Positions 30,694-45,362 of a stretch of DNA of 64,000 nt are shown here, piece after piece. Position 1 is the stretch's first letter, and the number at the start of each line of letters is the position of its first letter. The notes beneath the pieces were generated by a model. That model saw nothing but the letters and a program-made list of their open reading frames with translations. It ran no database searches and had not been told where the DNA came from. The stretch spans positions 148,947 to 212,946 of the forward strand of contig CAVWAD010000007.1 in the NCBI GenBank assembly GCA_963752955.1, in the 5' to 3' direction. The DNA comes from an uncultured archaeon. GTDB taxonomy: Archaea; Micrarchaeota; Micrarchaeia; Micrarchaeales; CABMGC01. The position numbers and the translations under genes are program-made.

Positions 30694-30792
30694 TGCAGGG
30701 AGAGAGATTTGCTCAAATGTTTTGAACTCTCGTAGGCCTTAGGCCAGCAGATCTTGAGTCTGCCGCGTTTGACCAGGCTCCGCCATCCCTGC
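30694..30792 (-). tRNA. tRNA-Leu(CAA) with 13-nt non-canonical intron at 58/59 (30709-30721)
   Basis: Acceptor GCAGGGA/TCCCTGC, anticodon arm GCAGA-CT CAA GA-TCTGC, long variable arm; T-loop region 20 nt, restored to TTCAAAT by removing AACATTTGAGCAA. Confidence 0.9.
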
Positions 30793-30909: not shown

Positions 30910-33846
30910 GTGGAATTGAAAAAACTGAGCGATTTCAAGTTCGAGATAGAGAGGGATGAAAGCAGGGGGATGACCACCAATGTCGTCGCTTACACCACCG
31001 ATGCGATGCTCGAGAAGATAAAGACGGACAGGACCCTGCAGCAGGCTGTAAACGCGTCCTCGCTCCCGGGCATAGTCGGGAACGTGCTGTTGATGCCGGA
31101 TGCGCACGAGGGCTACGGGTTCCCCGTCGGGGGCGTCGTGGCCTTCGATTCCGACAGCGGCATAATATCTCCTGGTGCAGTGGGGTACGACATAAACTGC
31201 CTTGTGCCAGGTACCAAGGTCTACGACGATAACGGATCATGGCGTGCTATCTCAGATTTTAGAAGCGGCGAGACGGTTTCTATATTCGACAGGTCAAGGG
31301 GTTGCGTCGCCGAAGCCAAGGTGTTGCTCGCAATGAAGAAAGGAAACTGCGATAAGGTACTTAAAATAAAGACGAAACTTGGGAAGGAGGTGACAGCGAC
31401 AAAGGATCACCCAATACTGACCGACAAAGGAATGGTAAATGCTGGACTGCTTAATAAGGGCGACATACTCGCAGTCAGGGGTTTCGATGGCATCGAGTAC
31501 GTACATCCTCTTAGAAAGCCAATAGTTACGAGCGATGCCATAGCCGAGGTTCTTGATTCGCAGGGAATCGGAGACGCGGGCAATGCAAAAAAGATAGTTC
31601 TCAATTTCCTAAAGAAGCGTGGCCTGGTCGAGATGCATTCCGATGATGGAAAGCTTCCTATACTCATAAAACTGATCGGTTTCATTCTGGGTGACGGGAC
31701 AATACCCCAAAATCTAAGGAAGTCCTGGGTAACAATCTACGGCAAGGAGGACGATTTGCTAAGCGTGAAATATGATTTGCAAAAGTTGGATATCAGGGGC
31801 AGTATCAGTCACAGGTCTAGGCATCACAAAATAACCACGAAATACGGCACTCAGGAATTTGACTACGAAGAATATTCGCTGAAAATCAGTTCGATTGCCT
31901 TTTGCGCGCTGCTAATTGCGCTCGGAGCACCACAGGGCAACAAATCAGCGAAAGCTTATCGCGTCCCAGAGTGGATTGTCAACTCCGAAGACTGGCAGAA
32001 GAGGCTGTTCCTGTCGGCATATTTCGGCGCCGAAATGACAAAGCCGTTGACAAACAATGGATACAATTTTGGCTGCCCTGCTTTTAGCGTGAGCAAATTG
32101 GAGAGCCTACAGGACAATGCGGTGGCATTCCTGCTCGACATTAAGGCGATGTTGGCTTCCCTCGGAATAGAGACTTCGAACCCCATGATAGTTGAAGGTT
32201 ACCGTTACAAAGGTATCAGAGGAAACACAGTTGGGACTAGGCTCGCGATAGAGTCTAATACGGACAACTTGATACGATTTTTCGGCACTGTTGGGTACTC
32301 GTATAACAAGGAAAAAGAAAGGCTTTCCAGCCTGGCTACGCTATATTTGACCCTTGTCAAAAACATAAGGGAAGAACGAGACACGATAAGGCAAAATGCC
32401 ATTGCGATGTATGTGCAGGGCACCTCTCCTAAGGAGATAATTGCTGATCTTGAGTGTAAAACCGCCGGAAAAAGCTTTATACGGCACAGCATTTGGCAGA
32501 GCAGAGGGAACGCGCGAGTTTGGACAGAGCAGAGATTTGACGCGTTCATAGAGAAGTTTGAGATAGGGAAAAGTGGTTTCATCTATGATGAGGTCGAATC
32601 TATCGTAGAAGAAGATTACAATGGCGATGTGTTTGACATAACGGTCGACAACGCAAACCACAACTTCATCGCCAACGGAATCGTGGTTTCGAACTGCGGC
32701 ATCCGGCTGATAAAGACGAACCTTACCGAGAAGGAGATCAGGCCCCAATTGAACCGGCTTCTGGACGCGATGTTCAAGAACGTGCCGAGCGGGGTGGGCA
32801 GCAGGCTGAAGACGGGCTTCTCGCAGGAGGACCTTGAAAGGACGTCGCTCGAAGGAGTAGGCTACGCGCTTGAGAAGGGTTACGGTATTCCTGGGGACCT
32901 GGGCCGCGTGGAGGAAGACGGCGCAATGAAGGGCGCAGACTTCTCCAAGGTCAGCGACGACGCGAAGAAGAGGGGCATCGACGAGCTCGGCACGCTCGGC
33001 GCGGGCAACCACTTCCTCGAGGTGCAGAAGGTCGAGAGTGTCATTGACGAGAAGACTGCGAAGGCGTACGGCCTCTTCAGGGGCCAGGTGGTCGTGATGG
33101 TTCACTGCGGATCCCGCGGATTCGGGCACCAGATATGCAGCGACTACCTGAGGTCGCTGGTCGGATACCAGGCCAAGAAGAAGATCCAGCTCGTCGACAG
33201 GGAGCTGAGCTACGCGAGGATAGGGGACAGGGAGGCGGACGAGTACCTCTCGGCCATGAAATGCGCCGTGAACTACGCTTTCGCCAACAGGCAGATGATA
33301 ACCCACGCCGTGAGGAAGAGCTTCGAGGCGGTCTTCGGAAAGAGCTCCGACGCGCTCGGCATGGACCTGCTCTACGACGTGGCGCACAACATAGCCAAGC
33401 TCGAGGAGCACGTCGTCGGTGGGAGGAAGGTAAAGGTCTATGTCCACAGGAAGGGCGCGACGAGGGCCTTCGCGAAGGGCAGGGCGGAGGTGCCGAAGGA
33501 GTACAGGGGCATAGGCCAGCCCGTCATCATACCGGGAAGCATGGGCACCGCGAGCTACGTGCTCTGCGGCCTGGAGGGGGCGATGCGCGAGACTTTCGGC
33601 ACGACCTGCCACGGTTCGGGAAGAGTGATGTCAAGGAGCCAGGCGCTGAGGGAGATCCCTGTGAGCAGGACGCTGGAGTCGCTGAAGAGCAAGGGCATAG
33701 AGCTGCGCGTGAGGAGCCAGAAGCTGATAAGCGAGGAGTCGGAGTGGGTCTACAAGAACATCGACGACGTCGTAGCGGTCGTCGAGGGGGCCGGCATCTC
33801 CAACATAGTGAGCAGGAACGTGCCGCTGGGCGTCATCAAGGGCTGA
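30910..33846 (+). CDS. rtcB: RNA-splicing ligase RtcB, intein-containing
   Basis: MPDAHEGYGFPVGG, GYDIN|CGIR, GTLGAGNHFLE, H.GSRG.GH, HRKGAT, PGSMG, HGSGR. Confidence 0.95.
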   Translation: MELKKLSDFKFEIERDESRGMTTNVVAYTTDAMLEKIKTDRTLQQAVNASSLPGIVGNVLLMPDAHEGYGFPVGGVVAFDSDSGIISPGAVGYDINCLVPGTKVYDDNGSWRAISDFRSGETVSIFDRSRGCVAEAKVLLAMKKGNCDKVLKIKTKLGKEVTATKDHPILTDKGMVNAGLLNKGDILAVRGFDGIEYVHPLRKPIVTSDAIAEVLDSQGIGDAGNAKKIVLNFLKKRGLVEMHSDDGKLPILIKLIGFILGDGTIPQNLRKSWVTIYGKEDDLLSVKYDLQKLDIRGSISHRSRHHKITTKYGTQEFDYEEYSLKISSIAFCALLIALGAPQGNKSAKAYRVPEWIVNSEDWQKRLFLSAYFGAEMTKPLTNNGYNFGCPAFSVSKLESLQDNAVAFLLDIKAMLASLGIETSNPMIVEGYRYKGIRGNTVGTRLAIESNTDNLIRFFGTVGYSYNKEKERLSSLATLYLTLVKNIREERDTIRQNAIAMYVQGTSPKEIIADLECKTAGKSFIRHSIWQSRGNARVWTEQRFDAFIEKFEIGKSGFIYDEVESIVEEDYNGDVFDITVDNANHNFIANGIVVSNCGIRLIKTNLTEKEIRPQLNRLLDAMFKNVPSGVGSRLKTGFSQEDLERTSLEGVGYALEKGYGIPGDLGRVEEDGAMKGADFSKVSDDAKKRGIDELGTLGAGNHFLEVQKVESVIDEKTAKAYGLFRGQVVVMVHCGSRGFGHQICSDYLRSLVGYQAKKKIQLVDRELSYARIGDREADEYLSAMKCAVNYAFANRQMITHAVRKSFEAVFGKSSDALGMDLLYDVAHNIAKLEEHVVGGRKVKVYVHRKGATRAFAKGRAEVPKEYRGIGQPVIIPGSMGTASYVLCGLEGAMRETFGTTCHGSGRVMSRSQALREIPVSRTLESLKSKGIELRVRSQKLISEESEWVYKNIDDVVAVVEGAGISNIVSRNVPLGVIKG
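31198..32694 (+). mobile_element. RtcB intein (499 aa) with LAGLIDADG homing endonuclease
   Basis: Starts CLVPGT, block B TKDHPI, LIGFILGDG and FLSAYFGAE, ends HNFIANGIVVSN before Cys; lower GC than the extein. Confidence 0.93.
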
Positions 33847-34783: not shown

Positions 34784-35446
34784 TCAGGTTTTCTTCCTCA
34801 GGACGACGAAAAGGTGCATCTTGGAGTAGGGGGCCAGGTCTATCTTCTCCAGCACGTCGAACGCGCCCGATATCTCCTCCAGGAATGCCTTGTACACGCT
34901 CTGCGGATCCTTAGAGACGTCTATGCTCTGCGACTTGATCGCGACGTAGGCGAAGCCCCTGCTCTTCAGGAGCCTGCCGTTCCTCAGCAGTATGTCCGAC
35001 TGGTCCCTCGCGGCTATGTCCTGGTACAGCGCATCACACGGCTCGATGTCCCCCGCGTAGTCGTCCACGTTCCTGGCGTCGAGGAGCATCGGCAGCATGT
35101 TCGGCCGCGCCTCGCATACCTTTACGAGCTCGCGCATGCTCCTCTCCGATATCTCGACGCAGTAAACGACGCCCGAATCGCCGACGATGTCGCTGACATG
35201 GCTGCTCGTCGTGCCCGTGGCCGCCCCCAGGTAGAGCACCTTGGCGCCCCTCTTTATGGACATGTTCTTCATGCCGTTGAGCATCGCGGCGGCGAGCTTG
35301 CTCCGGTACGGGTTCCACAGCCGGTACTCCTCGCCGCTGATCTCGGCGAGCTCCTCGTCATAGACCCGCGCGCCCGGGACGAGGTTCCGCGTGGCCAGCT
35401 TGCCGTTCACCTTGAACACCCCCTCGAATACCTCCTTGACTTTCAT
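34784..35446 (-). CDS. flpA: Fibrillarin-like rRNA/tRNA 2'-O-methyltransferase
   Basis: YRLWNPYRSKLAAA, VLYLGAATGTTSSHVSDIVG, YQDIA. Confidence 0.95.
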   Translation of the reverse strand: MKVKEVFEGVFKVNGKLATRNLVPGARVYDEELAEISGEEYRLWNPYRSKLAAAMLNGMKNMSIKRGAKVLYLGAATGTTSSHVSDIVGDSGVVYCVEISERSMRELVKVCEARPNMLPMLLDARNVDDYAGDIEPCDALYQDIAARDQSDILLRNGRLLKSRGFAYVAIKSQSIDVSKDPQSVYKAFLEEISGAFDVLEKIDLAPYSKMHLFVVLRKKT

Positions 35447-45000: not shown

Positions 45001-45106
45001 GCTATTGTTAATTCAGAAGTTTGGCAAATTCTTCCGGAGTTAATCCTACTTCTCTGATTATTGCTCTTTGGTATTAAGATATTTAAGCTTCTGGGTGGGT
45101 TTTGAA

Positions 45107-45178
45107 GGCCTCGGCCGGGAATCGGACCCGGTCCTGAGGGTCCACAGCCCTATATGCGGCCATTACACCACCGAGGCC
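45107..45178 (-). tRNA. tRNA-His(GTG) with genomically encoded G-1
   Basis: G-GCCTCGG/CCGAGGC-C, anticodon loop CT GTG GA, T-loop TCCGATT. Confidence 0.88.
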
Positions 45179-45240
45179 ATGCGTTTTATATGTGTTAATC
45201 ATTATTTATACTTAGCTGGATATGAAATATGCGGATCCCT

Positions 45241-45362
45241 GGCGGGGTAGCTCAGCCTGGTTAGAGCGCCAGACTCATATGCAAAGCACTATGAGTGATG
45301 AGCATTTTTGCGATGATTGCTAAGATATCTGGAGGTCGAGGGTTCGAATCACTCCCCCGCCA
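45241..45362 (+). tRNA. tRNA-Met(CAT), probably elongator, with 47-nt intron at 37/38 (45280-45326)
   Basis: Acceptor GGCGGGG/CCCCGCC, CCAGA-CT CAT A|intron|A-TCTGG, BHB-like junction with intron helix GCAA/TTGC, T-loop TTCGAAT. Confidence 0.9.

Follow-up and report, generated by a model that had tools for sequence, protein, structure and literature searches.

Why should an archaeon with a genome of about 1 Mb keep an intron in its elongator tRNA-Met gene, and why should that intron carry an exact complement of the anticodon loop of its own tRNA? The question is raised by a stretch of 64,000 nucleotides (nt) from an uncultured member of the Micrarchaeales (NCBI GenBank assembly GCA_963752955.1, contig CAVWAD010000007.1, positions 148,947 to 212,946), referred to below, at its full length, as the window. 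The first-pass annotation of this DNA proposed that the intron is a single-motif guide RNA for ribose methylation of the wobble nucleotide C34 (Cm34). The anatomy, conservation and covariation of such an element and the position of C34 at N+5 (opposite the fifth base upstream of the box D-like element) were found in the sequences, and protein binding and methylation are kept as predicted steps. The element is real and conserved and, as judged from comparison of the genomes, very probably functional. We consider that the intron is probably a minimal box C/D-type guide, with a single kink-turn (K-turn), for Cm34 of the elongator tRNA-Met in which it resides.

The elongator tRNA-Met(CAU) gene lies on the plus strand at 45241-45362 and is matched by the Rfam tRNA model (RF00005) at 55 bits. 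It is missed by ARAGORN with default settings and called as tRNA-Met(cat) when introns are allowed. The 5' exon (45241-45279) and the 3' exon (45327-45362) enclose an intron at the canonical 37/38 position, which has the 47 nt assigned to it in the first pass (45280-45326); A31, C34, A37 and A38 are read at 45273, 45276, 45279 and 45327, respectively. Within the intron there follow, in order, a small 5' hairpin, an AUGAGU antisense element, three variable bases and GA, a capped stem, and xRU-GA. In the window these parts are: the hairpin UGC-AAA-GCA (45280-45288); the antisense (guide) element UAUGAGU (45290-45296), with its conserved core AUGAGU (45291-45296) facing U36-A31; a spacer base (45297) and the box D/D'-like AUGA (45298-45301), whose GA (45300-45301) is invariant; the stem GCA-UUUU-UGC (45302-45311), which is the capped canonical stem of the putative K-turn; and the box C/C'-like strand (45312-45319) with the bulge GAU (45312-45314), a GA predicted to form sheared pairs (45315-45316) and UUG. 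Nearest to the 3' exon is the strand of the splicing motif (45321-45327), i.e. UAAG (45321-45324) and a 3-nt bulge of A, U and A38 that contains the 3' splice site. The letters on which the first-pass proposal was built are all in place: TATGAGT is the exact complement of the proposed target ACTCATA (A31-A37, 45273-45279), G45297 and ATGA come next, and the GCA-TTTT-TGC hairpin and the C'-like GCGATGA (45310-45316) stand at the positions given for them. In the minimum-free-energy fold the target is paired with 45290-45296 and the 5' hairpin stacks on the guide-target helix.

Conservation of this design was examined by a DNA search of the window's genome and its 60 nearest relatives (61 genomes, with the own genome and the unpublished G050 counted). 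The whole tRNA-Met gene with its intron was found in 56 of the 61, with 76-96% identity over the gene. For the alignment used below, 56 copies were taken from 55 genomes of the order, two of them from a single genome; G050 and a partial copy, L086, were left out. Invariant columns are as common in the intron as in the exons. All 56 introns can be parsed in the same way: 5' hairpin, one base, N-[A/T]TGAGT, three bases, GA, stem-loop, N-R-T and GA, followed by a variable tail, xRAG-A-N and then A38. The partial copy (G028:C29:23350-23510) lies 1.2 kb from the full one and consists of the intron from the antisense element on and the 3' exon, with unrelated sequence ahead.

The antisense element is the part that would choose the target. 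As noticed in the first pass, the base opposite C34 is G45293, five bases upstream of the ATGA; this is the N+5 position, and the gap between the antisense element and GA is three bases in 56 of 56 orthologues. The heptamer TATGAGT occurs 62 times on the two strands of the 1.09-Mb genome, so that about 0.001 copies are expected in a 47-nt intron, and ATGAGT-NNN-GA occurs 13 times. ATGAGT is kept in 55 of the 56 aligned orthologues, the sole exception being TTGAGT. Among the 55 distinct rows of the alignment the guide pairs to A31-A35 (45292-45296) are invariant, the U36-A45291 pair is present in 54 and A37 is paired in 41. The duplex of 7 base pairs (bp) described in the first pass is thus correct for the window, but its conserved part is 6 bp. 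No complement of nt 38-43 precedes any box of the tRNA-Met intron, i.e. a guide for position 39 was not found.

Since invariance of the core pairs alone is no proof of pairing, an outgroup comparison was made. Within the order, the base opposite nt 31 is U, facing A31, in 56 of 56 orthologues. A scan was run for tRNA-Met genes that combine G31 with a CUGA box, the base facing nt 31 being left free. In its 14 archaeal tRNA hits (one of which, L247, was accepted as a tRNA by eye after it had failed the scripted test) this base is C in 12, G in one, A in one and U in none, and in the eight non-tRNA (bacterial) hits it is U in six, A in one and C in one. A switch from A31:U to G31:C is what is expected of a real helix, and the comparison is read in this sense. 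Other lineages with G31 have CUGA, a short loop or stem, and a perfect RUGAUGA at the same place. Inside the phylum the G31 form was matched in 25 of 401 genomes, which is chance level: the reversed control gave a similar number and the matches do not look like tRNAs. In two of the introns with this other design, from metagenome-assembled genomes (MAGs) of Ca. Woesearchaeota (L277 and L293), the guide is followed by CUGA, a loop of three bases and a perfect RUGAUGA, and exactly 12 bases further on a second CUGA adjoins the 3' splice site, which may be a second guide or simply the strand of the splicing motif.

The second half of the element is the hairpin that follows the guide. Its first GA is on the non-bulged strand, in the place of box D, and xRU-GA is on the bulged strand, in the place of box C, while the stem is closed by a loop; taken together, GA, capped stem and xRU-GA are recognised as a K-turn of the box C/D type. 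GA (45300-45301) and T-GA are invariant in all 56 orthologues. Of the 53 distinct introns, all have G-C as the first stem pair and 52 form the second; the third is formed in 41 of 46 (A-U in 27, C-G in eight, U-A in five and U-G in one); phylum-wide, the second and third pairs also come as GGG/CCC, GGA/TCC and GAC/GTC. In the same 53 introns the xRU bulge is TAT (20), GAT (18), TGT (10) or AAT (5), the position after the tandem G.A pairs is U.U (21), U.C (15) or C.C (7), and the second position after them is A-U (26) or A.G (18). Two other registers were tried and rejected. GTGATGA at 45295-45301 had been pointed out in the first pass as an alternative, perfect C box; the letters are there, but 45297-45299 is occupied by 13 different triplets (GAT in 28 of 53 distinct introns), which rules this box out. 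A K-turn with the hairpin as its non-canonical stem and G45312 A45313 as sheared bases is ruled out by the variation at 45312 (G, T or A) and 45313 (A or G).

The 5' hairpin has a length of 9 nt in 47 of the 53 distinct introns; its three pairs are formed in 96.3% of cells, and two of the three show changes on both sides. For the guide-target helix, the 5' hairpin and the K-turn stem together, 95.8% of alignment cells are paired and five pairs show changes on both sides. None of 500 shuffles reached any of the structure measures, and slid partners pair in 18.6-41.8%. A genome-wide regular expression for hairpins of GA, a 3-bp stem and xRTGA returned 35 matches, about chance level, and Rfam at E <= 1 reported only tRNA, and no C/D family, on the Met, Trp and Nanoarchaeum equitans loci. 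Two near-identical hairpins of the form GA / GGC-cgaa-GCC / CATGA were seen elsewhere in the genome (G000:C4:473662-473678, plus strand, and 480071-480087, minus strand); they are 6.4 kb apart on opposite strands, and both stretches then run into tRNA-like 5' sequence.

The design is found far beyond the closest relatives. The exact pattern is present in 253 of 401 sampled genomes of the phylum (251 of 399 when two unpublished genomes are set aside, and 134 of 188 among those at least 90% complete), with 0 matches to the reversed control. An alignment of tRNA-Met introns across Micrarchaeota, which the first pass had named as the check to make, therefore returns conserved boxes and a conserved antisense element, both in the 56 orthologues and in these 253 genomes. 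Among the matches of the phylum the base facing U36 is sometimes G (wobble) and the stem pairs vary widely. Three families have no match (f11, 0 of 21; f15, 0 of 8; f16, 0 of 7). More than 119 matching stretches were found in a world-wide species collection. Most of the 80 that were listed are tRNA-Met genes from Ca. Micrarchaeota, among them that of the cultured Ca. Micrarchaeum sp. A_DKE (L164); some belong to Aenigmatarchaeota and Anstonellales and one to a 'Nanoarchaeota' MAG, and about nine are chance matches in bacteria. A Ca. Iainarchaeum contig also matched the pattern, and the tRNA test did not confirm this locus.

An internal control is offered by the tRNA-Trp gene of the same genome (G000:C7:27346-27492, minus strand; L091:47-193), which has a 74-nt intron and is present in 52 of the 61 relatives. 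The counts given here refer to 29 of 30 loci returned, the G050 locus being left out. In all 29 introns there are nUGA, a capped stem and xRU-GA with three further bases, which in many cases make up a full AUGAUGA, and then a spacer of 12 nt; in 29 of 29 the eighth spacer base is a G facing C34 and at least six consecutive pairs are formed. A D' box of the form nnGA follows the spacer in 21 of 29; upstream of the D-like box the sequence is not conserved. From the spacing, the capped K-turn hairpin shared with the Met intron is read as the C/D motif of a canonically spaced guide in these genomes. The two introns differ in the side on which the hairpin is used: the guide of the Met intron is 5' of the D-like box, whereas that of the Trp intron of this lineage is 3' of the C box.

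The tRNA-Met intron of N. equitans, 66 nt long, has been reported as a stable and abundant RNA with C/D features and as a potential C/D small RNA (sRNA), and the supplement of that paper credits it with 31,500 reads and gives its target as 'no prediction' (Randau 2012, PMC3491384). The first-pass remark that an intron-encoded guide for tRNA-Met was not known to be described needs amending in that this C/D-like sRNA is in print, and stands in that it appears there without a predicted target. In the N. equitans sequence (L244), which is among the genes with G31, the complement of nt 31-37 is followed by one base, CUGA, a capped 3-bp stem, GAUGA and a 6-bp GC hairpin. It agrees with the window intron in host gene, intron position, order of parts and C34 at N+5, and differs in its length (66 versus 47 nt), in CUGA for AUGA, in G31:C for A31:U and in the extra 6-bp GC hairpin. 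By these features the window intron and that of N. equitans belong to one family, and the comparison gives the N. equitans RNA a predicted target, C34 of its own tRNA, at N+5 from a consensus D box. The N. equitans intron has been seen as RNA, whereas the window intron is known from genes; a search of sequencing runs for the stretch listed four DNA runs, with small shares of it, and no RNA run.

Self-guiding by a tRNA intron has one well-described precedent, the intron of euryarchaeal pre-tRNA-Trp, which directs the Cm34 and Um39 methylations as a box C/D guide (Clouet d'Orval 2001; Singh 2004) and which in Haloferax volcanii acts in trans according to reviews. As proposed for the Met intron, an intron at 37/38 aims at the wobble C of its own tRNA, and the guide and splicing folds exclude one another. 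The euryarchaeal Trp introns have two box pairs, 12-nt spacers and, in Haloferax, two targets, as opposed to one K-turn, a 6-7-nt guide and one target. Reviews of 2014, 2021 and 2024 name the tRNA-Trp intron as the only self-modifying tRNA intron guide or call it 'unique'. In the literature covered, outside which lie Joardar 2011 and Clouet d'Orval 2001, no tRNA-Met self-guide is described besides the targetless N. equitans sRNA.

In other organisms Cm34 of elongator tRNA-Met is guided in trans, by sR-tMet in Haloferax (Joardar 2011), by an sRNA in Pyrococcus and by human SNORD97 / SCARNA97 (PMC6601510). A stand-alone canonical C/D sRNA was found in a Methanobrevibacter MAG (L291), with terminal stem, C, 12 nt, D', C', 12 nt and D. 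Its D' guide ends in the same antisense letters as the Micrarchaeota introns, and 12 of its bases pair with the pre-tRNA-Met of the same organism (L302:1470-1580) across the exon-intron joint, with C34 at N+5. This predicted sRNA is a positive control for the guide-box unit, of the trans-acting type. The same sRNA is shared by two archaeal MAGs from horse faeces (L270 and L284). The trans guides thus share with the Met intron the predicted target nucleotide and the antisense letters that precede the box, and that of Methanobrevibacter also reads into the intron of the pre-tRNA; they differ in being encoded apart from the tRNA, with 12-nt guides and a complete set of C, D', C' and D boxes, while in the window the guide is in the intron of its own target and has one motif.

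Proteins of the kinds that such a guide would need, with a truncated Nop5 among them, are encoded in the genome. Fibrillarin is the methyltransferase of C/D particles; its gene, placed 10 kb away in the first pass, is indeed there, 9.8 kb upstream of tRNA-Met (34784-35446, minus strand; Pfam PF01269, 253 bits, residues 3-218 of 220), and the genome also encodes L7Ae (93 bits), a Nop-domain protein (168 bits) and a splicing endonuclease (two domain matches). The tRNA-splicing ligase RtcB (30910-33846, plus strand) has 978 amino acids (aa) and is interrupted by an intein: RtcB is matched at 528 bits in two stretches, and Intein_splicing and LAGLIDADG_3 sit between RtcB profile positions 1-52 and 49-426. 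RtcB joins exons and can circularise introns. A scan of the genome for canonical C/D sRNAs gave three matches, none of them aimed at tRNA-Met, and at least one ordinary C/D sRNA is present (G000:C7:30711-30759); the antisense word ahead of nTGA was found in the genome at places that look coding, and nowhere else.

Several observations weigh against a guide of this kind. The genome is 77.6% complete, and a separate guide for C34 of tRNA-Met could have been missed. The conserved duplex is 6 bp, against the usual 10-12, and the core five guide pairs never vary within the phylum; covariation of the guide is therefore a comparison between phyla, and the relatives are not independent of one another. 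The box letters are degenerate with respect to the consensus (AUGA for CUGA, GAUGAUU for RUGAUGA): what is conserved across the orthologues is no more than GA in the D-like box and xRUGA in the C-like box. Archaeal C/D RNAs normally have two K-turn motifs, both needed for full activity, and here there is one, with no second GA...RUGA in the 47-nt intron nor at 12-nt distance in the exons. One K-turn with one guide is also what the half-mer C/D RNAs of archaeal crystal structures have, but these are laboratory constructs, joined in pairs through the coiled coil of Nop5; if a single-motif guide worked in nature with an N-terminally truncated Nop5, the particle would be of another kind.

The Nop5 gene (G000:C4, L088:841-2295, minus strand) encodes 484 aa, is the only Nop5 homologue in the genome and is not beside fibrillarin. 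The protein aligns to solved archaeal Nop5 chains from about residue 111-140 of these on, covers positions 124-398 of 417 in the aNOP56 family model, and ends in a tail of 220 residues rich in R, P, E and D. Its 120 best homologues (267-499 aa, mostly of Micrarchaeota, with starts within -40 to +19 residues of its own) likewise have no N-terminal fibrillarin-tethering domain, so that the recruitment of fibrillarin is left unaccounted for. The first 122 positions of aNOP56 have no other match in the 77.6%-complete genome, even at E <= 10, and the open reading frames adjoining nop5 and fibrillarin do not encode a Nop5 N-terminal domain; PF08156 is uninformative for this domain, as archaeal controls also fall below its cut-off. 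The domain concerned is the one named as the holder of fibrillarin in solved particles (PMC11213020). In the literature within reach, which excludes supplements of preprints and subscription journals, no Nop5 without the N-terminal domain is described. The truncation lowers confidence in a canonical mechanism and leaves room for an unusual particle.

How do the folds of the precursor bear on the question? The guide-paired fold, which is the minimum-free-energy fold, has -14.2 kcal/mol when drawn by hand, and the bulge-helix-bulge fold as drawn has -4.1 kcal/mol. In the splicing fold C32-A35 face 45321-45324, with an A.C34 mismatch, and the bulges, which hold the splice sites, are U36 A37 | U and A U | A38. 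All four pairs of the central helix can form in 3 of 56 orthologues and three of the four in 50 of 56; the outer helix (45281-45284 with 45317-45320) is absent in 21 of 56. AUGAGU is 30 bases from the 3' splice site, outside the splicing motif, and its pairing encloses the 5' splice site in a continuous helix. This would fit a modification that precedes refolding and splicing, by analogy with pre-tRNA-Trp. The 7-bp guide helix and the stacked 3-bp hairpin would together give about 10 bp, which is near the duplex length of solved particles.

A device without methylation is the alternative that survives best. L7Ae binds K-turns in several unrelated RNAs, and it might bind this one while AUGAGU masks the anticodon, the intron serving as a folding or quality-control device that orders processing, aids the splicing motif or stabilises the intron. 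A Nop5 without the fibrillarin-binding domain and a single K-turn are both compatible with such a role, and the weak splicing fold (-4.1 kcal/mol, three of four central pairs in 50 of 56) could make use of a chaperone. The fixed N+5 distance between the antisense element and GA in 56 of 56 orthologues is, however, left unaccounted for, as are the 12-nt C-to-D' spacing of tRNA-Trp with C34 at N+5 (29 of 29) and the occurrence of the same guide-box unit in a canonical trans sRNA, and a genome of about 1 Mb has kept its fibrillarin gene. We regard this explanation as unlikely.

An excised, possibly circular intron might instead act in trans on spliced tRNA-Met, on initiator tRNA-Met or on another RNA. 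Among the 53 distinct introns, 40 have U immediately ahead of the 7-mer and 41 have A one position further upstream; with these two bases the guide would also pair with A38 and U39 once the tRNA is spliced, for a duplex of 9 bp. RtcB is encoded, intron RNA of N. equitans accumulates and the tRNA-Trp intron of H. volcanii works in trans, as those reports have it. In the window, however, the base facing A38 is C and not U, and the cis hairpin is the most stable fold. Moreover, in some lineages just four bases link A37 to the guide, which gives a simple hairpin, and cis pairing looks feasible from the sequences. This explanation, which differs from the preferred one solely in the substrate molecule, is improbable in our view. 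As a separate observation, ARAGORN with introns allowed proposes an initiator-like tRNA-Met(CAT) with A1-U72, a GGG/CCC anticodon stem and a 90-nt intron at G000:C4:115494-115658 (plus strand), a locus that the Rfam tRNA model does not report.

That the complementarity is the splicing motif itself, as an alternative bulge-helix-bulge helix accompanied by box-like letters that arose by chance, is very improbable: archaeal 37/38 introns normally pair with the anticodon and UGAG does complement C32-A35, but the helix must end two bases before the 3' splice site, in a place that is held by xRAG, 30 bases from AUGAGU; paired AUGAGU puts the 5' splice site inside a continuous helix; and GA...xRU-GA with a covarying stem is found in 56 of 56 orthologues and 253 of 401 genomes with 0 control matches. 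The first pass had named such a helix of TGAG as the finding that would undo its proposal, and the distance to the 3' splice site speaks against it; as the central helix of the splicing motif AUGAGU is ruled out by its position.

The self-guiding intron can then be pictured as follows. In unspliced tRNA-Met, AUGAGU would pair with A31-U36 (six conserved pairs, seven in the window) with the 5' hairpin stacked on this helix. Directly 3' of the guide helix, GA (45300-01) and xRU-GA (45312-16), clamped by the capped stem, would form the K-turn, to which L7Ae would bind and on which Nop5 and fibrillarin would assemble. C34, opposite the fifth base upstream of the D-like box, would then be ribose methylated to Cm34. 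Finally, the RNA would refold into the weaker bulge-helix-bulge that uses the 3' end of the intron, and endonuclease and RtcB would excise the intron.

Other features of the window surround these genes. A tRNA-His gene (45106-45178, minus strand) lies 62 bases upstream of tRNA-Met on the opposite strand; the spacer between the two (45179-45240) is AT-rich and presumably contains both promoters. The RtcB gene is situated between fibrillarin and an intron-bearing tRNA-Leu(CAA) gene (30694-30792, minus strand), which has an insert of about 13 nt in its T-loop region, a non-canonical intron position.

If the intron is a guide for its own tRNA, it would be the second self-guiding tRNA intron besides that of tRNA-Trp, and one that occurs as a rule throughout a phylum and also outside it. 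The intron RNA of N. equitans, left without a target in 2012, would acquire both a function and a target. With about 30 nt (guide, GA, capped stem and xRU-GA), the element is a candidate for the smallest natural C/D guide, and together with the truncated Nop5 it opens the question of the smallest possible RNA-guided methylation particle to experiment, for which three small proteins and a single transcript would do. More tentatively, it is possible that Micrarchaeota and other DPANN archaea run a stripped-down cis particle of one K-turn, a 6-7-base guide, L7Ae, a truncated Nop5 and fibrillarin. Such a particle would be built differently from the symmetric particles with two motifs whose structures have been solved, and it would explain why an intron is kept in the tRNA-Met gene of genomes of about 1 Mb.

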